DNA of 62,213 nt, the filler included, from Stramenopiles sp. TOSAG23-6 (taxonomy: Eukaryota), in the NCBI GenBank assembly GCA_900128565.1. It is 28 parts of 28 records of this genome, joined end to end, with 100 filler letters (N's around TTAATTAATTAA, not from the genome) between each part and the next. Parts side by side here need not be neighbours in the genome. Positions count along the whole stretch, not along the records: positions 22,419 to 24,545 come from LT638279.1; 27 more parts are not named here. One strand, written 5' to 3'. The translations under genes and the position numbers were made by a program. Under the pieces are notes generated by a model, which saw nothing but the letters and a program-made list of their open reading frames with translations, searched no databases and had not been told where the DNA came from. Positions 12,824 through 54,349 of the stretch are shown one piece after another (within the stretch, counting starts at the first letter, position 1; every line of letters starts with the position of its first letter).

Positions 12824-14100
12824 ATATTGTTTATTCAATAAAAATGTAATTTTTAGTTTGTAAAATTCAAGGTGAAGATGTGATGGTAATATTAAACAAT
12901 TGGTGAAGATGGAAAGAAAAAATTAGGAATACATAAGATGGAAATAGATAAATTTATTTTTAAAAGTGCACTTAAACTCAATTTGCATGATATAAATAAA
13001 TTAAAATGATTCCATTACCCCAAACCTAACCTACAATTCCCCCCTTAACTGTTTAATTGTTTGTGATGTTTGATCTTTCTTTGGTATATATATATGAAAA
13101 CATTGTTCCATTTTTCTCATGGTATTAAGATAATTCATTGTAATATTCTTTGTTAACCCTTTTCCTAAAAGATCAGCCCAAACAATATGTGTTTGTTCTT
13201 GTAATTTTTCAAACAGTGAGTTTTTGGTCAATGGATTATAAAGTAGTTGTTTTTGGATTTCTTCTGTTACTTTGAGATTGATCTTGTTGTAAAGTTGGTT
13301 CGCTCTCAATTGACGAGTGTCAGGACCAGCCAATAAGGCATGGTACCTTTTATTTGTTTCTTTATTCATCTTTTTNNNNNNNNNNNNNNNNNNNNNNNNN
13401 NNNNNNNNNNNNNNNNNNNTTAATTAATTAANNNNNNNNNNNNNNNNNNNNNNNNNNNNNNNNNNNNNNNNNNNNTACGAAATTTTGTACCTAACGAAAA
13501 AACATTTGAAATATTTTTCCAAAATACATGGTCTATTCACTCAACCTCATCTCGTTCCATTCGCCACTCGAAAGAGGCTACAACTCATTACTCAAAAATA
13601 TTGGGATAAAAAGTATTTTTCTGGTGAAATTGTTTAGAACAATACACATGCTTTTAAAATTGTCTGTTTACTTGCTACAATATTTTATCCATATCTTGAT
13701 GAGATGACTTTAAAAGCGTGTAATACACGAAATACACTGAAATAAAATATATAAAAAAAAAGATTTTACAGTTAGAAAAATGTGAGAATACGGAAAAGGA
13801 ATCGAATAAAAATTAGATTAATACTTGAAAAATTGAATGCTTTGTTTGTTAGGTACAAATTTTCCTATGAAAACAAAATCGAATAAAAATAAGAATAATA
13901 CACCCAAATAGTTGATAGATTTTTTTTAGTGAAATATTATTTTTATTAACACTACATTTTTCACTTGTTGGTTTTCTACTTTTTGGAAATAATTGGTCTT
14001 TTCAGAATATCAATTTGACACTAATTAAGAAATTTACTTAGTTTTCCATGATTGAAGAATAAGAAGTTTAATTAGTTTTCCATGATTGAAGAAAATTTAA

Positions 14101-14817
14101 TTAGTTTTCCATAATCACAATAGGTCTGTTACAACTGAGTAACTTAATATCTTTTTCCAACTGATCCAATAAGTTCTCAAAGTTTTCTTTCTTCCGAATT
14201 TTGCTGATGGTATCCAGTTTAGTGTTGTGAGTAATTCGTTGATATTTCTGATTCGTGTCATCCCATTTAACTTTCAACTGAGCACACAAGTTAGCTCGTT
14301 CAGTAGGATCCAGTAGAGTACCTCCTTGGTTATTCTGCTGCTCTTCTTGTTTTGAAAAATATTGCTCAATCACTTTCTTTTCGTCAGCAATGTCTGCTTT
14401 AACATGTTGTAAATATTCTGGTGTTTTACCGTAATCTTTCTTCTTCAAAAAGTTGGGTTTTGTTTCTCTAGCTTTTGGAACAGCTAGAATGTTTTCAACT
14501 GCATTAGATACTACAAAATCTTTAGTGGTTTGAAGGCCCATGACAGGTCTGTCTTTTCTCCCAGGTAATTTTTGTTTTGCTGTAACTACACGCTTTCGTG
14601 TCCATGGTTTTGCTTTTGACGGCTTTGATTGTCGGGTGCCTCTCAAATATTGTTTAGGATTTGGTTTGTTGTTTGGTTTACCAAATGTTCCGTGATTTCC
14701 ACTTTGTTTCCCGAATGAACTTGCAACCTTTCTGCTTCTGTCGTGTGTTGACCGATACATAGGTGGTTTAACCTCTTGAACTTCATCTTCCTGAATCCAG
14801 TTATAAATGCTTTCCAT
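14101..14817 (-). CDS. ENKUR: Enkurin (axonemal protein)
   Basis: MESIYNWI, KPPMYRS, KDFVVSNAVENIL, FLKKKDYGKTPEYL, LKVKWD...RKKENFENLLDQLEKDI. Confidence 0.9.
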   Translation of the reverse strand: MESIYNWIQEDEVQEVKPPMYRSTHDRSRKVASSFGKQSGNHGTFGKPNNKPNPKQYLRGTRQSKPSKAKPWTRKRVVTAKQKLPGRKDRPVMGLQTTKDFVVSNAVENILAVPKARETKPNFLKKKDYGKTPEYLQHVKADIADEKKVIEQYFSKQEEQQNNQGGTLLDPTERANLCAQLKVKWDDTNQKYQRITHNTKLDTISKIRKKENFENLLDQLEKDIKLLSCNRPIVIMEN

Positions 14818-15024
14818 TCTTTCAATTTGGTTTGTGTCTGTTGCACCTACCTGATCTAATTAGTTTGGAATAGACTACCGGGAAGATTTTCTTGCGATTG
14901 ATTGTGTAACGTCTTTTAGCAAACGACACGAAATCTCGAAAAATCTGAAAAATATTTGAAATTCAATTCGAACCACTTGTTGTTCAACACTTCGTAGACT
15001 TGTAAGTAACGGGAAGTATTGAAA

Positions 15025-15555
15025 ATGTTGTCGGATTCGCCAAAAAATGGGGGTGATTCTGAAGTGCATGCTGGGCGAGCTAAATGGAATAAATTGATGG
15101 ACCCAACGAGTAAGAGGCATTACTATGTGAATGAACTAACAAAATGCACTACTTGGACAGCACCAGATGCACGACAGACAGAAAAATATGCTGAATACTT
15201 TGACCAGAAAGGTCGAGCGTTTTACTTGAATAAGATAACACGGGCTGCAACTTGGCATAAACCACCAATGTTTGATACAGAGGCTTCAACTCGAGGTGAA
15301 AAAGCTGTGACTTTGTTAAATTTACAACAAGATGCTCAACTTGCTTCAACTAAGTCTAGTAATACTACTGAAACTTTGAATGAGTTGAGTGAAAATGATT
15401 TATGGCAAGCTTACACTGACGAGCATACAAAAAGAATATATTACATCAATAAGTTAACAGGTTGCTCAACATTTACTAAACCCGTAGTTGAAGATGAAGA
15501 AGAAATATGGGAAGTGGACGTCGAGGATCTTGACACACTTGTTCAGAGTGACAAT
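15025..15555 (+). CDS. Multi-WW-domain protein, first exon
   Basis: Three WW repeats (W..D..SKRHYYVN..T..TTW..P); ends at AT|GTATGT. Confidence 0.88.
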
Positions 15556-15714
15556 GTATGTTTTATTTTTTTTCAAATTCGAATTTTTTTTTCGTACGAA
15601 ATTTTGTACCTAACNNNNNNNNNNNNNNNNNNNNNNNNNNNNNNNNNNNNNNNNNNNNTTAATTAATTAANNNNNNNNNNNNNNNNNNNNNNNNNNNNNN
15701 NNNNNNNNNNNNNN

Positions 15715-17853
15715 TACGAAATTTTGTACCTAACGAAAAAACATTTGAAATATTTTTCCAAAATACATGGTCTATTCACTCAACCTCATCTCGTTCCATT
15801 CGCCACTCGAAAGAGGCTACAACTCATTACTCAAAAATATTGGGATAAAAAGTATTTTTCTGGTGAAATTGTTTAGAACAATACACATGCTTTTAAAATT
15901 GTCTGTTTACTTGCTACAATATTTTATCCATATCTTGATGAGATGACTTTAAAAGCGTGTAATACACGAAATACACTGAAATAAAATATATAAAAAAAAA
16001 GATTTTACAGTTAGAAAAATGTGAGAATACGGAAAAGGAATCGAATAAAAATTAGATTAATACTTGAAAAATTGAATGCTTTGTTTGTTAGGTACAAATT
16101 TTCCTATGAAAACAAAATCGAATAAAAATAAGAATAATACACCCAAATAGTTGATAGATTTTTTTTAGTGAAATATTATTTTTATTAACACTACATTTTT
16201 CACTTGTTGGTTTTCTACTTTTTGGAAATAATTGGTCTTTTCAGAATATCAATTTGACACTAATTAAGAAATTTACTTAGTTTTCCATGATTGAAGAATA
16301 AGAAGTTTAATTAGTTTTCCATGATTGAAGAAAATTTAATTAGTTTTCCATAATCACAATAGGTCTGTTACAACTGAGTAACTTAATATCTTTTTCCAAC
16401 TGATCCAATAAGTTCTCAAAGTTTTCTTTCTTCCGAATTTTGCTGATGGTATCCAGTTTAGTGTTGTGAGTAATTCGTTGATATTTCTGATTCGTGTCAT
16501 CCCATTTAACTTTCAACTGAGCACACAAGTTAGCTCGTTCAGTAGGATCCAGTAGAGTACCTCCTTGGTTATTCTGCTGCTCTTCTTGTTTTGAAAAATA
16601 TTGCTCAATCACTTTCTTTTCGTCAGCAATGTCTGCTTTAACATGTTGTAAATATTCTGGTGTTTTACCGTAATCTTTCTTCTTCAAAAAGTTGGGTTTT
16701 GTTTCTCTAGCTTTTGGAACAGCTAGAATGTTTTCAACTGCATTAGATACTACAAAATCTTTAGTGGTTTGAAGGCCCATGACAGGTCTGTCTTTTCTCC
16801 CAGGTAATTTTTGTTTTGCTGTAACTACACGCTTTCGTGTCCATGGTTTTGCTTTTGACGGCTTTGATTGTCGGGTGCCTCTCAAATATTGTTTAGGATT
16901 TGGTTTGTTGTTTGGTTTACCAAATGTTCCGTGATTTCCACTTTGTTTCCCGAATGAACTTGCAACCTTTCTGCTTCTGTCGTGTGTTGACCGATACATA
17001 GGTGGTTTAACCTCTTGAACTTCATCTTCCTGAATCCAGTTATAAATGCTTTCCATTCTTTCAATTTGGTTTGTGTCTGTTGCACCTACCTGATCTAATT
17101 AGTTTGGAATAGACTACCGGGAAGATTTTCTTGCGATTGATTGTGTAACGTCTTTTAGCAAACGACACGAAATCTCGAAAAATCTGAAAAATATTTGAAA
17201 TTCAATTCGAACCACTTGTTGTTCAACACTTCGTAGACTTGTAAGTAACGGGAAGTATTGAAAATGTTGTCGGATTCGCCAAAAAATGGGGGTGATTCTG
17301 AAGTGCATGCTGGGCGAGCTAAATGGAATAAATTGATGGACCCAACGAGTAAGAGGCATTACTATGTGAATGAACTAACAAAATGCACTACTTGGACAGC
17401 ACCAGATGCACGACAGACAGAAAAATATGCTGAATACTTTGACCAGAAAGGTCGAGCGTTTTACTTGAATAAGATAACACGGGCTGCAACTTGGCATAAA
17501 CCACCAATGTTTGATACAGAGGCTTCAACTCGAGGTGAAAAAGCTGTGACTTTGTTAAATTTACAACAAGATGCTCAACTTGCTTCAACTAAGTCTAGTA
17601 ATACTACTGAAACTTTGAATGAGTTGAGTGAAAATGATTTATGGCAAGCTTACACTGACGAGCATACAAAAAGAATATATTACATCAATAAGTTAACAGG
17701 TTGCTCAACATTTACTAAACCCGTAGTTGAAGATGAAGAAGAAATATGGGAAGTGGACGTCGAGGATCTTGACACACTTGTTCAGAGTGACAATGTATGT
17801 TTTATTTTTTTTCAAATTCGAATTTTTTTTTCGTACGAAATTTTGTACCTAAC
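15715..17853 (+). repeat. Redundant copy of scaffold 13476-15614 (enkurin 16340-17056 minus; WW protein 17264-17794 plus)
   Basis: Identical ORF translations at offset 2239. Confidence 0.95.
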
Positions 17854-17953
17854 NNNNNNNNNNNNNNNNNNNNNNNNNNNNNNNNNNNNNNNNNNNNTTA
17901 ATTAATTAANNNNNNNNNNNNNNNNNNNNNNNNNNNNNNNNNNNNNNNNNNNN

Positions 17954-19357
17954 AGCATTTTGAAACGCGACTCTAAGTTCAGGTGATGGCCACGACCCAC
18001 ATTCGACGAAAGATCGATCCCACACGCCGTCTTTTAATAGCTGGTGGTTCACCGTTCGTGAAGCTAAAATACTTGCCATTGAAAGGTTCAACGTGTAAAT
18101 ACGCCCCACGCCAATGTGTTGATGGCCAGCGAGAGCAAACTCTGAATTTCCATAAATACGATCAGTCATTGCACCCCCTGCCAAAGCTGATGGAACAACA
18201 TCCTGCCCACCGACAAGAGCTATATGTTCGGGCACATTATTTTCCATCTTTTCGTAGATCTTCATGAGTTGGCTACCAATTAAGCTGGAAATTTGTTCAA
18301 CGTTGTTTTCCGTTGGGATTTCTTGGATTTCCACACCTTGCAACGGGACAACAATCCCATTTCTTCGTGCGGCATACATGGGTGCTGTGAATGAGAGTTT
18401 AGGCGTTAGACTACCTTCACGATCTACAGGATTTGTGACCGCAAGGTAGTCTACTGGAAAATTGTTCTCCAGCAGCCAACCAAGCGCATCTAATGTCCCA
18501 AGCAGGTGAACGCCCAGATTTGGATCCACATTTCCAACGACGAGCAGTGGTTGGGAGACAGTGATAATTTCAAGGCAGCGGTGCAATGAATGTACAAAGA
18601 GCAGGGGAGCGTCCACTCTTGCAGCAACACTTGCTGCAAGTAACGCTGCCCCGTAGTCGTCCTCCGACGCGACAACAGCGTGCTTTGTTTCTCCGCCCCA
18701 GAGTGCAGCGAGTGCAATAGTCGTAGATTCCAAGTCAGGACAATCGTAATAAATGACATCGGTATCAGCGGCGGCCACAACGTCAAAGAGATTGTTGCCG
18801 CTTCGAAAGACATGAACAAAAGAAGGCTTCAATCGATTAAAGAAGTCTTGCATGTTGTCGAATTGCGGCGCATTCAAGTCGTAACCTTCAGGAGTCATAA
18901 CTTCTTCGCTTCCTTCGCTCACAGCTAAGACGGTTGGTCGTTTCCCAATGCTCCCACTGTTCAGGTGGCTACTGGTCACGGTAGCAGCAAGGAACGCGAA
19001 ATCCCTCCAGTCCGGAGTCGTGCGAGGAATGGTAAAAATGAAAGCATGGGTCGTGTGAGCATTGGTATTGGTACCGGAGACCGTCAGTGTTGCATGTTCT
19101 CGAGGCTTTTTTAGCGACCAATGGGAGGAACCGCAAGTCATTCCACCGTCAGCTTGAGTAATAAAAAGCTGCCCTGGTAATGAACTTGTAATTTTTTCAC
19201 CATCATATTCCATATTTTCCCATCTGTTGCCAGCAGTATCAGCCCAGATGTAATTTTCACCATTTTTCGTAAATGATCCAGTGTATGAGGTACCATCAAG
19301 TATCCATTTTGAATCGTTGGACAACTCATTCCATTTGAAGGTCTTTTTCTCTGCCAT
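17954..19357 (-). CDS. Prokaryote-like protein with a CWB2-like repeat and a peptidase C25 (gingipain)-like region, 3' truncated
   Basis: VVASEDDYGAALLAASVAARVDAPLLFV is cell-wall-binding-2-like; HIALVGGQDVVP...TDRIYG...IGVGRI is C25-like; intronless and GC-richer than most of the window. Confidence 0.6.
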
Positions 19358-21075
19358 GAGTATGTTGAGTTGGTATTTTAACTTGAGATACGTTTGATAT
19401 AACTCTAAACACGCAAAATCTATGCAACCATGCGTTTCAAAAATTTGCAAGTTACACAACAAACTCTACGGTGACCATGCACAAAATTTATAGTTTTCTT
19501 AATAAATAAAAAAATATCTACTACTATAAATTTAAATTTTCTACACCACATCATCATTATTATTATATTATTAGGGAAAATTATTATGAAATTTTTTTTA
19601 ATATAATATTAATAATTGTAATAATAGTAGTAGTAGAGAGTAGTAGTAAATTTTAATTATTTATTATTATTTATCATCAATTAATTGTTATTATTATTAT
19701 TATATCTTAATATTGTACAAAAAAGATATTTTATTTCTAGTACTTAGTATTTCCATCCTATGGGCCATTTATTAGTTACTACAGTGGTATCACATACTAC
19801 TATTAATAATGTGCTAACATCACACACCATACAATAATAAACATCATCAATCAAAAAACAAACCACACTTCGACACTTACTGGTGAGTGGCCGCATATGC
19901 AGGTGGTCGCATTTCGGGAAGTGTAAAGAGAAGTTTTTCTATATAACAAATAAAATATAACATCAAATTATTAATCAAGTAAACCTTAAGATCAATACAG
20001 ATCACAAAAAAGTATTTATATTACTAAAAGTGCGCATTTGTTTTCTATACTGTGTTGCTGTTCAATGGAAAAAGATTATTTTTTCCGGCCCNNNNNNNNN
20101 NNNNNNNNNNNNNNNNNNNNNNNNNNNNNNNNNNNTTAATTAATTAANNNNNNNNNNNNNNNNNNNNNNNNNNNNNNNNNNNNNNNNNNNNTGTACCGCG
20201 CGACGCTCCTGTGCTTTGAGAAGACCCTCAATTCGTTTCCTGCTGTTCTGGTCGCTCTGAAATCGTAAATCTGCCAAAGTGTCTGTACCCAGTGCTTCAT
20301 CAAACTCGAGAACAGTGTGGTTTATACGGGTTTGTATTGCAACAAGTTGATCCGTTGGGTTTCCATGCTCCTGAATGTATCGAAGTTTCTCTTCAAATGG
20401 GTCTATTTCATCAGATGAATAGCCACTCAATGAGTAGTCATCATCGTCCTCCTCGTAATTATTAGACGACATGCCGGCGAGGCAAAGCTAGCAAACAACA
20501 AACCGATCAGGCAAACCGATTAACATTACACAGAAGAACCCACACATTCCATAAAAACGCAAACATGTAATCAATTGAACGAACGGGGGATATGCAACTA
20601 CTGCACAGTATAATTATAACCGACATGTATATTTCAAAGATAGAATAAGAAGAAAGGAAAATATGCCATTAATATAATATTTTTATTATTATTTGATGTA
20701 TTAATAATACTACACAGCATCAGTACGTAGTACAAAAAAACAAATAAATAAAATGGAGGAAAAAATAACAACGTTAAAACGCCTGCCTCTTCTTTTTATT
20801 ATTTGTTGGTTCATTGTAGTGTTATAGATAGGGTAAATAAATTTGGTGAAAAAACGACTTCAACAAAAAAAAGCTGAAACCACCTGCATGCGCTGCCTCT
20901 GATGATTCAGCAGCAGCAGCAAGCAGGAGATGAATTTTCTTTCTGCTCAAGTGAGTATATAGACACTAATTGATATAGCCATGCAAACATGATCAAGCAG
21001 TAATTTCCGACAAAGGTGAATGGTTGTGAAGATAACGCGTGCTGGCATGAAAAATAAGCGGTTCGCAACTTTAGA

Positions 21076-21804
21076 ATGGCGTATAGTGACCGGCACCTCG
21101 AGTGCGTTGAATGCAATTTAAAATTTAGCAGCAGGGGGCATTTGTTGGCACATATAGAACATTTTTGTATAGATAGTGACTGGTCCGATCCTGTGATGAA
21201 GAAAGATTCATTGCGTAAGCAGTACTTGGCAGAAGTAAGACGTGATAGTATTTCCCAAAAGACAGTTGGTTGGGAGGAGGTTCATATGTATTTAAGAAGG
21301 GAAAATTATGGGAGGTACATTTCTGATGAACGCAAGCGCCAACGCGAACAGAGGAGTATTGTTGGTCACTGTACACTGCAGACGTTGCGCGATCACTTTC
21401 GAGAGGATACCGACGAATTTGGGTTTTTGAGGGACCACATTGGGGATGAAAAAAACGAAGCGCTTATAGAACATTTGGAGATATTGAAGCACAAACGGGA
21501 GTTGGTGCGAAATTTAAAAGACAAAGAAGAACGCCGTGTACTTCATTCTAACAACCATTACTTCCACCACAAACACCACTCTCCCAAAAAGTACAATTAC
21601 GACGACCGTGTATGGAGAATGGGAGGGGGGAAATATTATTCCGTGGGGCATTTTGGCTTAGCTAGTGGCATAGAACAGCACAAGGAGAAGCATCAAACAA
21701 AGAAAATTGCATATTTGCAAAAATTAAATGAAGAAGAGAAGGAGAAAACAGCCAAATTAAAAGCATCTACGAGACGGAAGTCACCGAGGAGAAAGAAAAA
21801 TTAA
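21076..21804 (+). CDS. Hypothetical protein with an N-terminal C2H2 zinc finger
   Basis: LECVECNLKFSSRGHLLAHIEHFC. Confidence 0.6.
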   Translation: MAYSDRHLECVECNLKFSSRGHLLAHIEHFCIDSDWSDPVMKKDSLRKQYLAEVRRDSISQKTVGWEEVHMYLRRENYGRYISDERKRQREQRSIVGHCTLQTLRDHFREDTDEFGFLRDHIGDEKNEALIEHLEILKHKRELVRNLKDKEERRVLHSNNHYFHHKHHSPKKYNYDDRVWRMGGGKYYSVGHFGLASGIEQHKEKHQTKKIAYLQKLNEEEKEKTAKLKASTRRKSPRRKKN

Positions 21805-21892
21805 CCGTGTACTAATTAGAAAAGAACTGAAAAAAAAAAATTATTTCCCTCCACTTACACATTTTATACTCTTTCGCATGAGTTTATTCGCT

Positions 21893-22318
21893 TCAACCTA
21901 GTTGCAACGTGCTCCCGCCTCGCCCTGGAATCGGGCGCTTCCCAGGACCCAATTCTGCATCTAGGGCAGCCTGTCCCTCTTTCCCCATTAGTACATTGAA
22001 ATGATCAATAACTACTCGCGACTGCGACAACTTCTTCTCAATGTCGGTTTTTGGCTTTGGTGGCTCACCAAACTTGGCTGCCAAACCATGTGGCGTATTC
22101 TCTATCTTTCCAGTTTGCCATAATTCCACGTCCAAAGTTTCTCTTCCCCCTTCTTTGTCTTGTTTAATCAACCACCCTCCTTTGATTTGCCCCAATTCTT
22201 CTTTTCTTTTGTCCAAGAGTCTCTTGATGGGGTCTTCAAACTTCTTTGTTTTGAACTTAATGGTTTGTCGACTGATGACGAATGGATCGTACTCGCTTTC
22301 TACATATATATCGCGGAA
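21893..22318 (-). CDS. Hypothetical protein, C-terminal part
   Basis: Open frame with coding-like composition running from the gap to a stop. Confidence 0.45.
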   Translation of the reverse strand, partial: FRDIYVESEYDPFVISRQTIKFKTKKFEDPIKRLLDKRKEELGQIKGGWLIKQDKEGGRETLDVELWQTGKIENTPHGLAAKFGEPPKPKTDIEKKLSQSRVVIDHFNVLMGKEGQAALDAELGPGKRPIPGRGGSTLQLG

Positions 22319-22526: not shown

Positions 22527-23370
22527 GCAAGTTCTAGAAAATATGCCGTCAGATGTGACACGTGTCTTTATTTTCCCGCAAATGTTTGCTTTGCATTCTC
22601 TGCCAGTAGACTCTGGTTTACCCTCTCAAGATGATTCAGGAAAAGGCCCAGAAAAAATAAAAATGCCACCCATCATGAATTTATCAATTTCAAAGATGTC
22701 GTCTGATGTGCGTTTATTTGTAACAAATTCTTTTTATTTTTTTTTTTTTTTTTTTTTTTAAAAAATTTCATACCTAACAAAAAAAAACATTTCAATTTTT
22801 TTTTGTATTTTTTTACAATTCATGGATGTTATCTTGTAGAAGATGGTGTAACGATGTTTATATGGATTGGTCGTGCTTCACCACCTAAATTGGCACATGA
22901 TTTGTTTGGTGTTGAAACGTTGGAGGGCATTGATTGTTCGATGTTACAACTACAAAAAAGAGAAAATGAATTCTCACAAAAAGTATCAAATATCATATCC
23001 GCTCTTCGATCAAATCGTAGCATTCACCAGAGAGTCCAAGTAGTAAGACAAGGCGAACCTAACGAACAAATGTTTGCATGTACGTTTCTGTTATGAAATA
23101 TATAGATTTTTTTTTTTTTTTTTTTTCTAGTACATATAATTTTTTTTTTTTTTTTTTGAATTCAATTTTTTATAAAAAATTCTAAATTATTTAAAAAAAA
23201 AAAAAAAAAAACTAAAAAACTAAAAAACTAAAAAATGTTTCAAAATAATATTTTCAAAACGTACATGGCGTTTGGTAGAAGACCGTGCGGATTATCCTGG
23301 AGGTGGTCGATCGTATCAGGAATATGCAGCCTATGTGCAACGCACTACACAGTTACAAATACCTCATTAG
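22527..23370 (+). CDS. SEC24: COPII Sec24, C-terminal exons 22527-22707, 22824-23079, 23267-23370
   Basis: FPQMFALH...MSSD|GCYLVEDG..MFIWIG...LFGV...FA|WRLVEDR...SYQEY. Confidence 0.9.
22708..22823 (+). mobile_element. Non-canonical intron (GT...AT)
   Basis: TCT GAT|GTGCGT...TACCTAAC...ACAATTCAT|GGA TGT TAT. Confidence 0.88.
23080..23266 (+). mobile_element. Non-canonical intron (GT...AT)
   Basis: GCA T|GTACGT...AAAACGTACAT|GG CGT TTG GTA GAA GAC; restores the frame into LVEDR. Confidence 0.88.
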
Positions 23371-23726: not shown

Positions 23727-24200
23727 TCATTTCTCAAAAGAATTTGAGTTAGGGTTACTACTAGAGGATGAAATTGTGGACANTCGTTCCATCATTTCAA
23801 CACTTTCNTCATAGGAGTTACCCGGTACACCAAAGTCAGCTTTGACATCATACATGGTTAAACGTCCAATAGAGTCACCTACAGCAATTTTCCGTCCTGT
23901 GCTGTCCCATATACTATAAAAAATATCAAAAAAAAAAAAATTTCNTTAGNTTGAAAAAAAATTGACGATTTTTTTAAAAATATTTGTTAGGTACAAAATT
24001 ATCTACGAAAAAAAAACTTCACAAATAATAAAAACATACAACACAAACGATTTACNGCATGTTTTGACGAATCATTTGTTGAATATTTTTTATTTGGACT
24101 TTTTTGTTTTTCAGTTACATTTTTTACGTTTCTTGTTTTTGTACCTAACGATTGTGTAGATGTTTGTGTTGAATGATTGATTGTATACACAGGACAACTC
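23727..24200 (-). CDS. Cytoplasmic dynein intermediate chain (WD40), last exons
   Basis: Spliced AVNRLC|WDSTGRKIAVGDSIGRLTMYDV matches the dynein IC C-terminus ALNRVRWxxSGREIAVGDSEG. Confidence 0.85.
23909..24039 (-). mobile_element. Non-canonical intron (GT...AT)
   Basis: TGT T|GTATGT...TACCTAAC...ATAGTATAT|GG GAC; restores the conserved Trp; a 2-nt-shifted junction gives TGA. Confidence 0.9.
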
Positions 24201-24344
24201 ATATATTTTGTGGAACAATATTTCAAAAAAATTTTAAAATTAAAATTAATTTTTTTTTTCTTAGGTATAAAATTAACTACAAAATTAAAAAAAAAAAAAA
24301 AAAAAAAAAAATGAAACATCGAATGCAAAAAAAAAAAAACGTAC

Positions 24345-38039: not shown

Positions 38040-38983
38040 TACATATGACAAGTAAATGCAATGCTTTCTGTCGAATATAATGAGGACGGTATTGTAGCAT
38101 ACATGTATTGTACAAAAAATAGTCATTGTACAAAAAAAATAAAGTTAGGTACAATTTTTTAAAAAATTAAAAAAAAAAAAAAATTTAAATTTTTTTTTTT
38201 TTTGAAAAAAGTTAAATTTTTTTTTAAGTTAAATATGTACAATAACACCATACAAATACATAAGTGTAAAATTCCAATCAATGATGGTAATTTTGGTAAG
38301 ACTGGACATATTTCAGACAAAGCACCAAAATAGTGTTCGTACCAAATATTCTTACCTGACGCAAAATAACAACGATGTAAACAAAAATCTCTTGAAACTT
38401 CCGATCTTGATAAAATATGCGTTAATGCAATTTTAGCCATATTTCGTGTAAATGAAGTATTACACCAAAATAATTCATCAATCCAGTCAAAAATAATTTC
38501 ATTTGATTTATCAATTTGACACTTTAACAGTGATGTCATTGCTAGTAAAAACGATTTTTGAAATGTATTTAGGTACAAATTTTGTACCATTTTCGTTTTT
38601 TTTGTTTTTTTTGTGATTTCGTGTAAATAATTGGACCATCTTTGGTGTAAAATGGACCATAATTTAGCCGCAACTTCAGATGTAAAGGGAGCGTCCCAAG
38701 TATCACAGACATTTTGTATGTATTTTGGAAAAATATTTTTTTTTTTTTATAATTTTTTTGTTAGGTACAAAATTTACTACAAAAAAAAAATCGAATTTGA
38801 AAAAAAAAAACATACATACATCGACACAATTCGCATTGTAAGATTTGTAATGATTTCGTGTCATACGGTTCTAGACAATTTGGTGAAAAATATGTGAATG
38901 ATTTAAAAAATCTTTTTTTGTATGTTAGATAATTTTTTTTTTTTTTTTTTTTTTNTGAAAATTTTTTTTTTTTTTGGGAAAAA

Positions 38984-40279: not shown

Positions 40280-41068
40280 ATGGCACGGTCTCTAGCTCCT
40301 TTCCATAATATTTGTAGAACTTCTTCTTCGTTATCGACTTGAACATTTGTTGCCTGAGGTACGAAAACACCACCTCCTTTTATTTCTTCTCTGATATCGA
40401 GACCTCCTCGGAGTTTCTTGGATTCTTCGTAACGCAAATATTGTGAAAAAATATTTCAAAAATTTGATTTTGTTTTCGTTAGGTACGGAATTTCCTATGA
40501 AAAAAAAAATACATTTGAAAGTGGAGAATACGTACAACAGATCGTAAATTCTCTCGTTATAAATCTCAAGATACGTACATTTGACTGTATAGGAAATGTC
40601 TCGTCGTTTTGAATTTAAAACTCGAAAAACTTCTTTCATAGCACGTGGAATAAGCCCCCACATATTCTTATTAGCAGCAAATTTATCAATGGAACTATCT
40701 TTCGTACTAGTATCCTCCCCCCATGAGTTCACACCAAGAATAGTATGTGTTTTACCAGTACCAGTTTGACCATATGCGAATATAGTACTATTATACCCTT
40801 CAAGAGCCGCTTTGATAAAAGGTCGTGTCGACGCGTACACTTCAGCCTGACTGGACGTATCACTAAAGACGCGATCAAATTGGTGGCACCGAATCTGTTT
40901 TGGGTTTGAGTTGAACTTTCCACGCTGAGCTACTCGAACAAACTGTGAGCCTGATACTGTGATTGCCTTTGTAACACCTGCATTAACTTCACGCTCTATC
41001 AATGGACGTACCCGGGCAACCACTTTAATGGTCTCTGCAACATTTCCACTTTCACATCGCTGCTTCAT
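40280..41068 (-). CDS. Kinesin motor, N-terminal exons (intron 40436-40535, GT...TT)
   Basis: IKVVARVRPL, FDRVF, GYNSTIFAYGQTGTGKTHT, YLEIYNERIYDLL|RYEE...LDIREE; CTG TT|GTACGT...CACAATATTT|G CGT. Confidence 0.95.
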
Positions 41069-42455: not shown

Positions 42456-43069
42456 ACTGAAGACCGAGATGTAACGTTTGAGAGAGGTATTGTTCATAGT
42501 GACGAGGCAGCTGTTCTACCAAAACAATTTAAAGATGTAGGCTTAAGTTTTTTGAAAATTGAATTTCGCATTTGTTTTTTTAAAGAAAATTTTGTACCTA
42601 ACAAATTTTTTGACTAGAAAAAAACATTTTTTTACAATATATGACCTTTGTGAGTGTAGAGTTAGATAAAGAGGATGGTAATAATTTAGAAAACACCTTT
42701 ATAATATCTAGTTGGTGCCCATCGGCACAAAATGTAAAACAAAAACCAAGTATGCTCGTCACGTACAACGCCAAGGAAAAGACTGAAAATATTGATTCTG
42801 ATTGGACAGTTACTTCCCGTGAAGGTCATCCTTGTCTAACTTCACGACAAATGATGAGTACATCTCTCCTTTGGCCTTGGATGCAAGGGAATCGTAATGG
42901 TCGTGTATATTTTTGTGGATCAGCTATTACACCAGGAAATGGGCATGATTTATCATTGCTTTCAGGTATGGTCATTGCATGTGAGTTGGGTGTACCGTTT
43001 CCATTTGATGAAAATAGTGAAGCGAAGAGTGACTTTGAAAAATTAAGGTATTTAATGTTGAGCAAATAA
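42456..43069 (+). CDS. FAD/NAD-dependent oxidoreductase-like C-terminus
   Basis: MQGNRNGRVYFCGSAITPGNGHDLSLLSGMVIACELGVPFPF. Confidence 0.6.
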
Positions 43070-43215: not shown

Positions 43216-44319
43216 TCAACCATCGCTATAGTATAACTCTTCATAACATCCTAAAGGTATTGGCACAATGGTAGCTTTACCTGCAGTTATTTGAACGCCG
43301 TCTAATGCAATGCTCTCATATCCATTTGTATGATCTCCAAGGATGTAAAGTCCCGATAAACGCTTCAGTACCTGTACCATCTCGCAAGCACTTGGAGGAG
43401 TCCAAGAGACTTGAGTATTTTCAGAATCTTTTAACCATTCTGACTCTACAAGTGGAATAACAATTTCTTTCGTAGAACCATCGAAATGAGATGTCAATTT
43501 CGATGTAGGGTAGTGTAGTCGAATACCTTTGTTGTTTGATATATTGCACTTTTCACATTCCAACATCACGAAGCTGTCATTTTCCAACTTTTTAGTGAAA
43601 TCCCCAGCAGCCGATCCCAAGGTGAAACGAAGTTCACCTCCATAAGCAGCGACTCTATCACCAGAAAACTTAGGGGGAGCTTTAAAATACCATTTTGTCA
43701 TATCATTTCCTGTGCTATCAAGATTTATTTCACCTTCTTCAGCAATGATAAATCCGCTCATCTGGCCTCTACTATATGAGTTCCATTTGGCAGCTTCGCT
43801 TTTTTGATTAACAACCTCGTGAACAACCTCCCACTTATCTGAACTACGACGGAAAAAGGAAGCAACAAGTATTCGATTACTGTTAAGAAAGCAAACGCGA
43901 CTTGGATATGAAGTAACATTTGTTTGATCAAAGGCTTGGTACTGGAAACAATCGTGAGGTTCTTCAGTAGGTGCCACGCTGTTTTCGTTTGGAGAATAAA
44001 TCAAAGATGTAGACGGACAACTTATTGTCGCTGAATCATCGGTGAAATTTTCTATATGATCAGTCTGCTTTGGCGGGAATCTGTAATTACAGTAATTAAC
44101 CTCAGGATGGGCAACCTTTCCCGATTTTGGGAGTCCAAGCAATCTGAACTCAATTTTTCTATAGGGTTTTGAATATCCTTTTAATTCCACATCAATCTCG
44201 TCACCTTTTTCTACAACGTAAACGAGTTCCCTTACTAAAATATCCGAGGAAATTGCTGCTACAAATGATACAGAAAGATTGATAATTGTTAAAAGCATAC
44301 TAGTATTGAAACGGCTCAT
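43216..44319 (-). CDS. Secreted laminin IV (laminin B) domain protein
   Basis: Signal peptide; WYFKAPPKFSGDRVAAYGGELRFTL...VLKRLSGLYILGD. Confidence 0.8.
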   Translation of the reverse strand: MSRFNTSMLLTIINLSVSFVAAISSDILVRELVYVVEKGDEIDVELKGYSKPYRKIEFRLLGLPKSGKVAHPEVNYCNYRFPPKQTDHIENFTDDSATISCPSTSLIYSPNENSVAPTEEPHDCFQYQAFDQTNVTSYPSRVCFLNSNRILVASFFRRSSDKWEVVHEVVNQKSEAAKWNSYSRGQMSGFIIAEEGEINLDSTGNDMTKWYFKAPPKFSGDRVAAYGGELRFTLGSAAGDFTKKLENDSFVMLECEKCNISNNKGIRLHYPTSKLTSHFDGSTKEIVIPLVESEWLKDSENTQVSWTPPSACEMVQVLKRLSGLYILGDHTNGYESIALDGVQITAGKATIVPIPLGCYEELYYSDG

Positions 44320-45149
44320 TTCTACACAATTTTTACAACTAGAAATGTGCTTTATTCAGTTGAGCTACAGTAGTGTACTTGTCTAAAAAAAGGTTACGTT
44401 GACAATCCCAGACCTGTGTCAAAAAAAGAAAGATTTCAAAAGAATGTTACCCGGTACACCAAAGAATTCTAATTTTGCATAAAAATTTAATATTGCATAA
44501 ATGTTGTTTTTCAATGTNNNNNNNNNNNNNNNNNNNNNNNNNNNNNNNNNNNNNNNNNNNNTTAATTAATTAANNNNNNNNNNNNNNNNNNNNNNNNNNN
44601 NNNNNNNNNNNNNNNNNATCAGCAAAAGACTATGAGCAACTTAGAAAGAGAGATGAAATCAAACCAAAAACCTCAGATGGTACGCAGTACATCAGGAGCG
44701 CAACTTCCAAACACCTCAGGAGAATATGAAAATGAAACAAATACAACCAAATTAGTTATACGTAGAGCCAGAAATCGTGCGAAAGTCGCAAATGCGAGAG
44801 CAAAGCTTTTGGAAGAAGAGGCTGAAAAGGAATGGCAAACAAAGAAAATAATGAAAATAATGAAAATGAATCTGAAAACCAATGCACTGAAGATATTCAT
44901 TCCACAAAAACAAATAGCAGGTCAAAGCAAAAACGTTGGATGAAGCGAATACAAGATCAACACACTGCACTTATATGATTGACTTGGCTAAACTTGTAGG
45001 AAATTGAAATTTTTTGTATTATCCATTATTAGCATTCGGACCTATATGTATATGACTAATAAACATCAAACTATTTTTTCTTTATTTTGAATTCTTCTTA
45101 TGAATTAAAAAAATCTTTTTTGTACGAAACTTTGTACCTAACAATTGTT

Positions 45150-48945: not shown

Positions 48946-49102
48946 NNNNNNNNNNNNNNNNNNNNNNNNNNNNNNNNNNNNNNNNNNNNTTAATTAATTA
49001 ANNNNNNNNNNNNNNNNNNNNNNNNNNNNNNNNNNNNNNNNNNNNATTTTGTACCTAACAAATTTAAGTTTTTTTTTTTTGAAATATTTTTCCAAAACAC
49101 TT

Positions 49103-50827
49103 GATGTTCGTAATGATCCAACAAAAAGTGTTATTTTTGGTGATGATAGTGNCGTAAATGGTCAAGCANTACTCGATATTGCTGAATTTCAACGTGACCG
49201 TCGAATTTGTTTTGAATGGAACAAAGGAGATATCTTAATTATTGATAATTTTAAGGTCATGCATTCTAGAAATCCATTCACTAGACCAAGGCGTATCTTA
49301 GCAGCTATTGGTGGTCCATCAAAGGACGGTTATGCAATTGGTTCAGGTATTCGACAAGCAGAAAGTCCTACTGAAGATATACCAATGCCAGACAAACATT
49401 CAAATAATTTTAAAAATTCAAAATATCATGGAAATAGCAAAGGTGTATTTCGTGCATCAAAAGGAAAGGATTCTCAAGGTCTCAAACGTGCACGTAATGT
49501 TCCCGTTAAGATATTATCTCGCACAGGAGATACAATGCCAATGCTTCAATTAGGAGTTTGGAAAATATCTAAAGAATGCACCGCTCAAATTATTTTCGAT
49601 GCAATTGTTATGTACGTTTTCATTTCAAATTCGATTTTGTTCTTTTATTTTATACCAAATTGTATACCTAACATTTTTTTATTTTGAAATATTTTTTCAC
49701 AATACATAGGCTATCGTGCATTTGATTGTGCATGTGATTATGGAAATGAATCCGAAGTTGGTGAAGGTATCAAGCGTGCACTTGATGCTGGGCTTGTTTG
49801 TCGCGAAGAGCTATGGATTACATCAAAATTATGGAATACATATCATAACCCTAGACATGTAAATTTTCAATCTCAATTTTGTATCTAAGATTTTTTTTAA
49901 AGTATATATATTTTTACTATGAAATTCCAATTTTGATTTTTTTTGTATCTTACTCTACTTTTAAATACTATTGTTTACTTTTGTATTTTGCCATTTCATC
50001 TAAGAAAACAATAAAAACTTTACTACATATTTTTTTCAATTTAATTTTTTTTGGTTTGAAATTTTGTACCTAAACAACAACAACAAAACAAACATATTTT
50101 TTTCACAATACATGTCAAACTTGCATGTCAAAAAAGTTTAAAAGATCTTCAATTAGATTATTTAGATTTATATCTGATTCATTTTCCAATATCGCTTAAA
50201 TTTGTACCATTTAACAAGAGGTATCCTCCTGAGTGGATTTATGATCCAAATTCTCCAAATCCTCGAATGGAATTTGCAAATGAACCGATGTATAAAACAT
50301 GGGCGGCTATGGAAACTTTAGTTGACTGCAATATGGTAAGAAATATCGGTATTTGCAATGTAGGTCAAGCATTACTCAGTGATATTTTATCATACTCGCG
50401 ATATAGCCCACAGGTGCTTCAAATTGAAGTTCATCCGTATAATACACAAGAAATGTTGTGTAGATATGCAACAGAAAATAATATTGCTGTTACTGGGTTC
50501 AGTCCACTAGGTGCNTCATCCTATGTAGAACTTAATATGGCAACTTCTTCACAATCTACACTATTAGAAGATGTTATTACGAATTTAGCAAGTAAATACA
50601 ATAAGACATGTGCTCAAATCATTTTGAGATGGGGAATTGAAATGGGACGTATAATTATTCCTAAAACATCAAAAAAGCATCGACTTGTCGAAAATATCGA
50701 ACTGTTCACCTTTAAACTTGAAAATAATGAATGTTCAGCAATATCAGGATTGAATAAGAATATGCGGTTTAATGATCCAGGAGTCTTTTGTCAATCTATG
50801 AAAGGTTTTTGTCCAATATATAACTAA
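49103..50827 (+). CDS. TauD/clavaminate-synthase-like dioxygenase fused to a xylose-reductase-type AKR; introns 49612-49707 and 49859-50113 (both GT...AT)
   Basis: DVRNDP...[26 protein letters not shown] (TauD C-terminus), in frame with [13 protein letters not shown]...[19 protein letters not shown]...[16 protein letters not shown]...RFNDP. Confidence 0.9.
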
Positions 50828-51040
50828 ACCACAAAAGCAACCACAAAAGCAACTACAAAAGCAAACATTTTTATAAAGGGGTAAAATAATCAATCTTGTC
50901 CCATTTATAATTGAAATAAATTTGTTTTATTTGATACTCAATTTCAAAACTAAGAAGAATTTTCCAAGATCTTTTTTTTGCCATTTAGGTAACTACTCTA
51001 TCGCCGGGTTATTTAACAAAACAACATTGTAAAATATGGT

Positions 51041-51156
51041 AGCTCAGCAAGCAGGCTTCCAAACGGGTCCCCCACGATCGTACTAGCTGCTCTCAACCGG
51101 GCTTAACTTCTCAGTTCGGATGGGATGAGGTGCTGGTCCGGTGATATGGCCGAGCT
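51041..51156 (-). rRNA. 5S rRNA
   Basis: Reverse complement AGCTCGGCCATATC...GCACCTCATCCCATCCGAACTGAGAAGTTAAGC...GCTAGTAC...GTGGGGGACC...GGAAG...GCTGAGCT; complementary ends, downstream T-run. Confidence 0.88.
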
Positions 51157-51257
51157 GNNNNNNNNNNNNNNNNNNNNNNNNNNNNNNNNNNNNNNNNNNN
51201 NTTAATTAATTAANNNNNNNNNNNNNNNNNNNNNNNNNNNNNNNNNNNNNNNNNNNN

Positions 51258-53369
51258 ATTTTGTACCTAACAAATTTAAGTTTTTTTTTTTTGAAATATT
51301 TTTCCAAAACACTTGATGTTCGTAATGATCCAACAAAAAGTGTTATTTTTGGTGATGATAGTGGCGTAAATGGTCAAGCAATACTCGATATTGCTGAATT
51401 TCAACGTGACCGTCGAATTTGTTTTGAATGGAACAAAGGAGATATCTTAATTATTGATAATTTTAAGGTCATGCATTCTAGAAATCCATTCACTAGACCA
51501 AGGCGTATCTTAGCAGCTATTGGTGGTCCATCAAAGGACGGTTATGCAATTGGTTCAGGTATTCGACAAGCAGAAAGTCCTACTGAAGATATACCAATGC
51601 CAGACAAACATTCAAATAATTTTAAAAATTCAAAATATCATGGAAATAGCAAAGGTGTATTTCGTGCATCAAAAGGAAAGGATTCTCAAGGTCTCAAACG
51701 TGCACGTAATGTTCCCGTTAAGATATTATCTCGCACAGGAGATACAATGCCAATGCTTCAATTAGGAGTTTGGAAAATATCTAAAGAATGCACCGCTCAA
51801 ATTATTTTCGATGCAATTGTTATGTACGTTTTCATTTCAAATTCGATTTTGTTCTTTTATTTTATACCAAATTGTATACCTAACATTTTTTTATTTTGAA
51901 ATATTTTTTCACAATACATAGGCTATCGTGCATTTGATTGTGCATGTGATTATGGAAATGAATCCGAAGTTGGTGAAGGTATCAAGCGTGCACTTGATGC
52001 TGGGCTTGTTTGTCGCGAAGAGCTATGGATTACATCAAAATTATGGAATACATATCATAACCCTAGACATGTAAATTTTCAATCTCAATTTTGTATCTAA
52101 GATTTTTTTTAAAGTATATATATTTTTACTATGAAATTCCAATTTTGATTTTTTTTGTATCTTACTCTACTTTTAAATACTATTGTTTACTTTTGTATTT
52201 TGCCATTTCATCTAAGAAAACAATAAAAACTTTACTACATATTTTTTTCAATTTAATTTTTTTTGGTTTGAAATTTTGTACCTAAACAACAACAACAAAA
52301 CAAACATATTTTTTTCACAATACATGTCAAACTTGCATGTCAAAAAAGTTTAAAAGATCTTCAATTAGATTATTTAGATTTATATCTGATTCATTTTCCA
52401 ATATCGCTTAAATTTGTACCATTTAACAAGAGGTATCCTCCTGAGTGGATTTATGATCCAAATTCTCCAAATCCTCGAATGGAATTTGCAAATGAACCGA
52501 TGTATAAAACATGGGCGGCTATGGAAACTTTAGTTGACTGCAATATGGTAAGAAATATCGGTATTTGCAATGTAGGTCAAGCATTACTCAGTGATATTTT
52601 ATCATACTCGCGATATAGCCCACAGGTGCTTCAAATTGAAGTTCATCCGTATAATACACAAGAAATGTTGTGTAGATATGCAACAGAAAATAATATTGCT
52701 GTTACTGGGTTCAGTCCACTAGGTGCATCATCCTATGTAGAACTTAATATGGCAACTTCTTCACAATCTACACTATTAGAAGATGTTATTACGAATTTAG
52801 CAAGTAAATACAATAAGACATGTGCTCAAATCATTTTGAGATGGGGAATTGAAATGGGACGTATAATTATTCCTAAAACATCAAAAAAGCATCGACTTGT
52901 CGAAAATATCGAACTGTTCACCTTTAAACTTGAAAATAATGAATGTTCAGCAATATCAGGATTGAATAAGAATATGCGGTTTAATGATCCAGGAGTCTTT
53001 TGTCAATCTATGAAAGGTTTTTGTCCAATATATAACTAAACCACAAAAGCAACCACAAAAGCAACTACAAAAGCAAACATTTTTATAAAGGGGTAAAATA
53101 ATCAATCTTGTCCCATTTATAATTGAAATAAATTTGTTTTATTTGATACTCAATTTCAAAACTAAGAAGAATTTTCCAAGATCTTTTTTTTGCCATTTAG
53201 GTAACTACTCTATCGCCGGGTTATTTAACAAAACAACATTGTAAAATATGGTAGCTCAGCAAGCAGGCTTCCAAACGGGTCCCCCACGATCGTACTAGCT
53301 GCTCTCAACCGGGCTTAACTTCTCAGTTCGGATGGGATGAGGTGCTGGTCCGGTGATATGGCCGAGCTG
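51258..53369 (+). repeat. Redundant copy of scaffold 49046-51157 (TauD-AKR at 51315-53039)
   Basis: Same sequence at offset 2212, with Ns resolved. Confidence 0.95.
53253..53368 (-). rRNA. 5S rRNA (duplicate scaffold)
   Basis: Identical to 51041-51156. Confidence 0.88.
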
Positions 53370-53473: not shown

Positions 53474-54349
53474 TTATTTTTTAGTAGCAATAATGAAAAT
53501 GAGATCATCTTCAAAACTAATCATCTTACTTTTATCATCTGAAATGTTATATTGCTGATGTATTTCTTCTATACCTCTATCCAATTCTTCCGTTTTAAAA
53601 GAACTAAATATTGAAAACACTCTATTTTTAATCATATTAGTCCAATCGGTTAAATGTATTCTGAAACAATATGTCAAAATTCAAAATTTGTTAGGTACGG
53701 AATTTCCTATGAAAACAAAAATAAATTTGAAATAATGATGAAAACGTACAAGTACTTGAAAGTGGAAAACTTCGTGTACAACTTCAATAGTAAACCCAGG
53801 AGCTGCTCTTGTTATTATTTCCACCAACGATTCCACAGATGGTTGTTCATCAGCCCATTTTTTCTTTGCAAGTTCAAAAAGAGGAAATTTAGGAAATTTT
53901 GGTCGAGTCACTGCGAGACAAATTCCATTTGAGTTCAAATGATGAAATATTTCGCAGTACATCTTTTCCAGAGTTTCTTTGCTGATATGGTGTACTACTT
54001 CTTGAAGCAAGAAACGATCATACATAGTTTTGTTTTCAGATAGAAACTGAAGTGCAGTTTTGTTAACTTTCACAACGTCATCAGCCTTTGCTTTTTCAAG
54101 CATTTTTGTACACGGCTCTACGCATACTACTTTACTCTTTAATTGTGCTTCTGCCTTTAATATGGAAGCCATCTGACAGATTCCACTTCCAATATCTACA
54201 AATTTACTCGTCGAAATTAATTTGATATGCTTCATGACCTTGCCACTCTTCCAATTTGTAAATTTACTACCCTCACGGTAAAACATTGATGCATCGTACA
54301 CTTTCGAGACTAAGCTGTAATGCTCCGAGTATTCCGTTGATGGCAGCAT
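53474..54349 (-). CDS. Class I SAM-dependent methyltransferase (intron 53654-53749, GT...AT)
   Basis: FVDIGSG, VCVEP, YDRFLLQEVVHH; CTT|GTACGT...AGAATACAT|TTA ACC GAT TGG. Confidence 0.85.

Follow-up and report, generated by a model that had tools for sequence, protein, structure and literature searches.

Introns that appear to end in AT rather than AG, most of them copies of an introner-like element, in contigs of Stramenopiles sp. TOSAG23-6

Introduction

AG at the ends of introns is among the most constant signals of eukaryotic genes. The only well-studied large-scale exception, in which introns end in AT, is to our knowledge a small group of tunicates with duplicated U2AF genes. Introners of Micromonas and Aureococcus were reportedly described by Huff et al. 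in 2016. Here we analysed a stretch of DNA of 62,213 nucleotides, linkers included (hereafter, the window), made up of contigs of Stramenopiles sp. TOSAG23-6 (assembly GCA_900128565.1), whose genes contain introns that appear to run from GT to AT, most of them members of one repeated family. One of these introns, in a gene for a dynein intermediate chain (dynein IC), had been flagged by an earlier reading made without database searches (the sequence-only reading), which claimed that the introns are to be read in the register GT...AT and not as AT-AC introns.

The closest precedent comes from fritillariid larvacean tunicates, Fritillaria borealis and F. pellucida. According to the available portions of the report by Soo et al. 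(Nucleic Acids Res 2026, PMC13326754; preprint 10.1101/2025.08.15.670264), 3′AT is the commonest intron end in Fritillaria (44% in F. pellucida, 34% in F. borealis; AG accounts for 38% in F. pellucida), and the main intron classes of F. borealis are AG/AC and AG/AT (PMC13326754). The last triplet of these introns is almost always Y-A-Y, with the penultimate A serving as the mapping rule, and a normal T-rich tract precedes 3′AT (PMC13326754). The same portions describe splice sites that derive from inverted repeats of introners and a U2-type spliceosome with diverged U2AF paralogs, and give U12 as absent (PMC13326754; 10.1101/2025.08.15.670264).

Introners are also known in other, mostly aquatic, eukaryotes (Gozashti et al., PMC12130899), and passages of that survey name AG and AC as the only accepted 3′ sites. 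For Physarum polycephalum, the part of the work by Larue et al. at hand (10.1101/2020.10.12.336362) mentions GT-AT only as a minor non-canonical class of U12 introns. In our literature search, no marine protist was described as having a family of GT-AT introns; the slash form GT/AT was unsearchable and supplements were outside its scope, so that absence is not proven.

Results

Introns begin with GT and mostly end with AT

The intron reading is based on protein homology and reading frame. The catalogue comprises 20 introns, of which the 19 in coding regions were kept, while 24201-24344 was dropped from the frame count. Borders were set without reference to coding, by the fit to the 5′ and 3′ consensus of the repeat family described below, and the flanking frames were then tested. 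All 19 coding-region introns start with GT; they end with AT in 15 cases, TT in two, GT in one, AC in one and AG in none. As AT makes up 0.096 of the dinucleotides in the window, ∼1.8 of 19 AT ends would be expected by chance, compared to the 15 observed. The borders set by the consensus joined the longest flanking frames in 16 of the 19 introns (chance of 1/3 each; P(≥16) = 7e-6). Of the other three, the aldo-keto reductase (AKR) intron 1771-1896 fits the frame when the homolog alignment supplies its phase, 42537-42640 does so when its end is moved by 2 bases inside an ATAT run, and the result for 23080-23266 is ambiguous.

Base counts over all 20 introns describe a GTRNGT-like donor of the U2 type (G1 in 20, T2 in 20, A3 in 19, G5 in 15 and T6 in 18). 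At the 3′ end, base −3 is C or T in 18 introns, base −2 is A in 17, base −1 is T in 19 and C in one, and the first exon base is G in 13. The YAG with which U2-type introns end was present at the end of none of the 19 coding-region introns. A branch-site-like CTAA[CG] occurs in 16 of the 20, and positions −16 to −11 are T in 12–18 of the 20, which resembles a pyrimidine tract. Of the 16 introns with this motif, 11 have no AG between the CTAAC and their 3′ end. The family copy at 1-77 carries AG in the column where the other copies have AT, and this anchors the 3′ border.

The introns, with the exons of the flagged gene, are as follows (position, strand, description).

23909..24039, minus: flagged dynein IC intron, GTATGT...GTATAT; family core at 23986-23996; the GT...AT reading leaves unused a YAG that lies 5 bases short of the end
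23730..23908, minus: last coding exon of dynein IC, WDSTGRKIAVGDS... to the stop; PDB match
24040..24200, minus: exon on the 5′ side of the flagged intron; its last residues are ..AVNRLC, followed by a single base of the Trp codon
45317..45413, minus: GT...AT intron, GTATGT...ATAAAT; TAA in the shifted register
5837..5953, plus: GT...AT intron of the CAP-Gly gene, GTAAGT...CCACAT; without the family core
1559..1738, plus: GT...AT intron of the AKR gene; two copies of the core
1296..1403, plus: GT...TT intron of the AKR gene, GTACGT...TACTT; upstream dinucleotide TT; no canonical alternative
1771..1896, plus: GT...AT intron of the AKR gene, GTAAAT...TTTAT; no canonical alternative
27676..27791, minus: GT...AT intron of the so-called Smr gene; copy with GAAT before the donor
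60912..61011, minus: the same so-called Smr intron on a second contig (95% identical); GAGT before the donor; 16 bases shorter
346..498, plus: GT...AT intron of the UPF0029 (IMPACT-like) gene; continuity of the Pfam profile
138..257, plus: GT...AT family intron of the UPF0029 (IMPACT-like) gene, from the family alignment
1..77, plus: family copy just 5′ of a start codon; ends ..AATACAG
40436..40535, minus: GT...TT intron in a kinesin-motor gene, GTACGT...TATTT; upstream dinucleotide TT
4665..4765, minus: GT...AC intron of the Arp4-like gene, GTATGT...TTATAC
28518..28644, plus: GT...GT family intron, GTACAT...ATACGT
49612..49707, plus: GT...AT family intron, from the family alignment
49859..50113, plus: GT...AT intron of a second aldo-keto reductase gene
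53654..53749, minus: GT...AT family intron after a methyltransferase domain
38718..38815, minus: GT...AT family intron, from the family alignment
22708..22823, plus: GT...AT intron before the gelsolin-repeat exon of a Sec24-like gene, GTGCGT...TTCAT
23080..23266, plus: GT...AT intron, GTACGT...TACAT; ambiguous in the frame test
42537..42640, plus: GT...AT intron; end shifted 2 bases within an ATAT run, relative to the consensus fit, to be in frame
24201..24344, minus: family intron between an ABCC transporter exon and a dynein IC exon; its flanks belong to different genes

Family elements also lie just upstream of start codons (1-77, 2252-2337 and 26872-26949), where they resemble introns of 5′ untranslated regions and end in ..ACAG or ..ACAAG. 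AG ends may thus be commoner outside coding sequence.

Informative junctions fit the register GT...AT

In 11 of the 19 introns the dinucleotide just upstream of the intron is identical to its last two bases (AT in nine, TT in two), so that the GT...AT register and the register shifted by two bases yield the same messenger RNA and are indistinguishable. The sequence-only reading was therefore right that a duplicated AT, found in 9 of 19, lets such an intron be misread as AT-AC. Introns of this other kind would be AT...AC, with the upstream AT intronic and the last AT exonic, and might be removed by the minor, U12-type spliceosome. In the nine introns where AT precedes GT, ATGTA...TAC/AT is equally valid for the same message, and the ends ATGTAT/ATACAT are inverted repeats.

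In the remaining 8 of 19 introns the upstream dinucleotide differs from the intron end, which makes them informative for the register. The AT-AC-like register produced a stop codon in two of the eight and the GT...AT register in none, and homologs carry the residue of the GT...AT register in three more; the other three are the Arp4-like intron, 28518-28644 and 53749-53654. The AT-AC register is thus contradicted at five of eight informative junctions, by a TGA at dynein IC, a TAA at 45413-45317 and residues foreign to the homologs at two AKR junctions and the CAP-Gly junction, in agreement with what the sequence-only reading had concluded. Moreover, the eight introns read in this way would begin with GG, TG, GG, GA, TT, TT, TA and TT, that is, with no constant start.

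At the flagged dynein IC junction (minus strand), the exon reads ..TGTT up to 24040, the intron extends from 24039 to 23909 (GTATGT...GTATAT) and the next exon starts with GGGAC. The GT...AT register gives ..RLC/WDS..., and a shift of the register by −2 places an in-frame TGA directly before the Trp; this had been claimed before and was recomputed here from the sequence. Single N bases are present in and near the intron (23783, 23808, 23945, 23950 and 24056), none of them at the junction bases. The exon at 23730-23908 matches cytoplasmic dynein 1 intermediate chain 2 in PDB (E 0.0014; chain residues 555-583 of 612), which upholds the gene label, and the exon at 24040-24200 alone had no PDB match.

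We obtained the same outcome at the other junctions that had been put forward. At 45413-45317 (minus strand; TATA/GTATGT...ATAAAT/GCAA) the shifted register indeed gives TAA. At the CAP-Gly intron 5837-5953 (GGA/GTAAGT...CCACAT/GTTG) the junction residue changes from Gly to Asp upon the shift, and the Gly aligns to a Gly of dynactin-1. At the AKR intron 1559-1738 (AGG/GTATGT...ATACAT/GTAC) the predicted change is from Gly to Met; the Gly is present in 4/4 of the closest homologs and the Met in 0/6. The two copies of the so-called Smr gene differ by A or G two bases before the donor (GAAT/GTATGT at 27791, GAGT/GTATGT at 61011), which in the GT...AT register is a synonymous GAA/GAG difference, as had been stated. 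The name of this gene did not hold up equally well: the exon that was tested had no Pfam match, and Smr is unconfirmed.

Signals of U12-type introns were likewise lacking. The donor [A/G]TATCCTT stands at the start of 0/20 catalogued introns, the branch motif TCCTTRAC has no match on either strand of the window, and the distance from the conserved core TACCTAAC to the intron end is 34-110 bases, not 10-15. The U12-type donor ATATCCTT matches twice in the whole window (44173 and 57237, plus strand), neither time at an intron start. The match at 44173 lies within the span of a minus-strand open reading frame (ORF), 43216-44355.

Several predicted spliced proteins are continuous with homologs or profiles

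The sequence-only reading had proposed to align the spliced proteins with their orthologs, and in our alignments both the AKR and the CAP-Gly junctions fit the GT...AT register. The spliced AKR aligned without gaps to four uninterrupted homologs (P0002-P0005, 44-50% identity, ORFs of metagenome contigs) across three junctions: ..KNV/GVSNF.. (1296-1403, GT...TT), ..ITG/YCPLARC.. (1559-1738) and ..KMFG/K.. (1771-1896). At the last of these the GT...AT register encodes Phe-Gly and the shifted register Leu-Cys, which occurs in none of six aligned homologs. In the UPF0029 gene, profile positions 53-83 precede the intron 346-498 and positions 85-106 follow it, with a split Trp codon between them. 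The first CAP-Gly exon ends on a Gly aligned to residue 41 (..KWVG) of dynactin-1 (2m02_A); the second starts at Pfam profile position 31, and its later part aligns to residues 48-81 of 2m02_A with a 3-residue insertion. In the kinesin gene, exon 1 covers profile positions 1-143 and the exon after 40535-40436 resumes near position 150. The exon that follows the Arp4 intron 4665-4765 showed no resemblance to the closest homolog, P0255.

For the AKR gene, the homologs P0002-P0005 are uninterrupted at all three intron positions, as would be expected of recently gained introners. The nearest AKR relatives available (contigs L002 and L003) appear to be intron-poor and without the element. The family core is absent from the loci of the AKR relatives (L001-L003), whose G+C is ∼40% and whose ORFs are long and uninterrupted; these loci are uninformative on how far the family has spread.

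Most of the introns belong to one repeated family

When aligned over their full length, sixteen introns taken from different genes form one family that begins with GTAYGT, has GTACCTAAC as its core and closes with ...AATACAT. The consensus of 16 complete introns is GTAYGTTTTCATT..ATTTCAAATT..T-run..CATAGGAAATTTTGTACCTAAC..A/T-rich..TTTGAAATATTTTTTCAAAATACAT/G, and the core ..TACGAAATTTTGTACCTAAC.. is common to nearly every intron. In the window, TTGTACCTAAC has 47 matches with at most one mismatch, compared to 0.99 expected. Several contigs stop exactly at the core, which is expected because a repeat breaks short-read assembly. The 20-base family core had no exact match in metagenome_contigs.

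The ends ATGTAT/ATACAT (6 bases) and the sub-terminal ATTTCAAA/TTTGAAAT (8 bases) form inverted repeats that recur across copies. The family looks like an introner, and the element resembles a small DNA transposon of the non-autonomous kind. A model in which insertion duplicates a 2-base target is partly supported by the bases flanking the copies.

The family intron at 24201-24344 joins exons of different genes. On the minus strand, 24201-24484 contains an ABCC/MRP transporter exon (PDB, E 1e-5) that is linked through this intron to the dynein IC exons; the join is most likely an assembly chimera through the repeated intron.

Two further repeats were seen in or beside these elements. The region 28170-28394 (and 61390-61614) is an 86% inverted repeat composed of two family elements head to head between divergent genes, and a (TTTTTTAG)n-like microsatellite occupies 1640-1690 within an AKR intron.

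Composition of the window

The window consists of 28 contigs (2,110-2,151 bases each), sorted by size and joined by N44-TTAATTAATTAA-N44 linkers (e.g. 2152-2251 and 17854-17953), so that contigs adjacent here need not be adjacent in the genome. Some contigs contain internal N gaps and single N bases. Three pairs of contigs are alike: 13476-15614 and 15715-17853 are 100% identical, 49046-51157 and 51258-53369 match at 99.86%, and 26872-28993 and 60104-62213 are 95% alike. G+C is ∼19-40% in 2-kb windows, as in an AT-rich marine eukaryote, and the standard genetic code reads long ORFs. Pfam searches identified ordinary eukaryotic genes (aldo-keto reductase, actin-related protein, kinesin, CAP-Gly, UPF0029, reprolysin-like peptidase, methyltransferase and gelsolin repeat). 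The public runs that have words in common with part of the window are RNA libraries from seawater (0.08-0.30 of the sampled words); they were not used as evidence.

Contigs 9 and 10 (17954-22318) have a higher G+C (38-40%) and no family core, and contig 9 is one ORF of 500 residues in which no Pfam family was found. These two contigs may hold intron-poor genes or may come from another organism in the same assembly. Full-length 5S rRNA genes (85.8 bits; 51039-51157 and 53251-53369, minus strand) lie at the extreme end of both duplicate contigs, directly after the aldo-keto reductase gene. Telomere-type repeats (TTAGGG/CCCTAA, 2-4 units) occur inside or beside genes, several of them near gene starts (27915-27940 and 61135-61160; also near 2500, 7160, 23385, 25340 and 40240), and in the frame of the so-called Smr gene the repeat reads NPNPNPNP.

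The best matches of GET3 are protist entries at 61-62% (one labelled Pompholyxophrys punicea), with named animals at ≤50%, and those of Arp4 are an EukProt entry at 66% and metagenome proteins. By these measures, which are single-gene similarities and not a phylogeny, the host seems not to be a larvacean tunicate.

Discussion

A probable explanation by U2-type splicing at YAT

The introns described here are probably U2-type spliceosomal introns whose 3′ end is YAT and not YAG, read in the register GT...AT and mostly copies of an introner. Their 5′ end would be a normal GTAYGT donor for the major (U2) spliceosome, and the near-invariant UACCUAAC, ∼34-60 bases before the end and followed by a T-rich tract, would occupy the place of the branch site. 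The cut would fall after ..A(C/T)AT, usually before a G. A 3′ end would be accepted as YAU, with the penultimate A kept (17/20). Most of the introns would be copies of one short non-autonomous element with the ends (AT)GTAT...ATAC(AT), inserted beside a 2-base target (mostly AT, sometimes TT) or duplicating it. Removal of the element together with one copy of the target would then restore the original message without a scar, and the two TT...TT introns would fit this scheme as well.

Several observations weigh against this explanation or parts of it. A search for canonical introns (ALTERNATIVES; any frame-keeping GT/GC...AG pairing near each intron) found frame-keeping GY...AG pairings near 17/19 introns, many of which cost deleted or inserted residues; at dynein IC, pairing the donor GTGTTG at 24044 with the TTATAG that ends at 23914 brings zero net change in length. 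The inverted ends are short, only 6 and 8 bases, and a 2-base target duplication fits only 11/19 introns, the other eight being different; at the AKR intron 1559-1738 the flanking GG encodes the conserved Gly, so that no AT target existed there. In a search of protein collections for products of transcripts from this organism, the CAP-Gly exon had no match, and the searches with AKR, GET3 and Arp4 returned only the ORF of the window itself and relatives at ≤66% identity. Finally, as 24201-24344 joins two genes, exon pairs that were not checked against homologs could be misjoined too.

Other ways to account for the introns

A different account, which we regard as unlikely, is that the elements are removed without a spliceosome, either at the level of DNA, like the internal eliminated sequences of ciliates, or as non-conventional introns with pairing ends, such as those of euglenids and Amoebophrya. 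The inverted-repeat ends, often with a 2-base direct repeat, and the repeated family, which looks mobile, would suit such elements. Against it, the unvarying GTAYGT at the start, the CTAAC motif and the T-rich tract are signals of spliceosomal introns, and the CAP-Gly intron has the same GT...AT ends without the family sequence. When five introns were folded as RNA, their z-scores against shuffled sequences were −0.4 to −1.6 and the centroid structures contained no end-to-end helix. Since the genes are read by the standard genetic code, a ciliate is not favoured.

It is less likely still that the AT ends were misread and that the introns are ordinary ones spliced at other GT/GC...AG sites nearby. 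In favour of this, besides the frame-keeping pairings, the family copy 1-77 ends with AG and two of the ends before start codons can be read as ..ACAAG/. The dynein IC pairing 24044..23914, which the sequence-only reading had missed, would place Phe-Ile before the Trp instead of Leu-Cys. Its donor GTGTTG, however, deviates from the donor pattern of the window at +3, +5 and +6, and because of this poor donor and since no coding intron ends with AG we rate the pairing as unlikely. Elsewhere, no canonical pairing is available for the AKR introns 1296-1403 and 1771-1896, the alternatives for 1559-1738 delete or replace the conserved ..CPLARCK block, and those for the CAP-Gly intron remove the ELD after the junction Val or insert residues derived from the intron. 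With the AT end, the UPF0029 profile runs on with single-residue precision.

The AT...AC reading, with or without a U12-type spliceosome, is highly improbable: frames and homologs give the GT...AT register good support, and AT-AC/U12 introns appear to be excluded wherever stop codons or homologs allow a decision.

Significance

We lean towards the view that in this uncultured marine protist, unrelated to tunicates, the genome-wide default 3′ splice site has moved from AG to AT through a burst of an AT-carrying introner, with GT and a yeast-like UACCUAAC retained. If true, this would be an independent and cleaner second case of the phenomenon seen in Fritillaria and would imply a changed reader of the 3′ splice site (U2AF-like or second-step factors). 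Such a genome would also provide a natural test of how the second step of splicing tolerates U in place of the last G, and would indicate that a non-canonical splice site can become dominant when an introner carries it. The failure of AG-assuming gene finders on genomes of this kind would be explained as well. In practical terms the register is settled as GT...AT, and both annotation and the mapping of reads should permit GT-AT introns instead of AT-AC ones. The replacement of AG by AT at intron ends through one introner family, as the sequence suggests, would be rare and unusual, and it deserves confirmation with RNA.

Comparison with known systems

Like the introns of Fritillaria, as far as the available portions of that report describe them, the introns of the window have Y-A-Y-like ends (−3 C/T in 18/20, −2 A in 17/20, −1 T in 19/20). 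Unlike there, the 5′ GT is present in 20/20, AT ends in 15/19 and AG ends in 0/19, and one family with a fixed CTAAC core is dominant. The family resembles introners (Micromonas, Aureococcus and others) in being a short repeated element in many unrelated genes, with short inverted ends and a possible target duplication (11 of 19 introns) that would allow clean removal, and in that, for the AKR gene, homologs elsewhere are without these introns. It differs from them in its 3′ end: passages of PMC7789003 describe those families as having canonical splice motifs, GT-AG, whereas here the element supplies AT. The U12 introns of Physarum, in the part of that work at hand (10.1101/2020.10.12.336362), combine a [G/A]TATC[C/T]TTT donor with a TTTGA branch motif placed 9-12 bases before the intron end; both are missing here. 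The elements of Amoebophrya (PMC7789003) and of euglenids (PMC11282704) are similar in that they too recur as intronic elements, contain inverted as well as direct repeats and have borders other than GT-AG, and come from a marine protist in the former case. As the passages at hand characterize them, however, those elements have no fixed terminal dinucleotides and form end-joining hairpins, whereas here the start is always GT, the end is nearly always AT and the five introns folded gave no hairpin signal; the genes of Amoebophrya have ∼54-58% G+C (PMC7789003), compared to ∼19-40% in the window.

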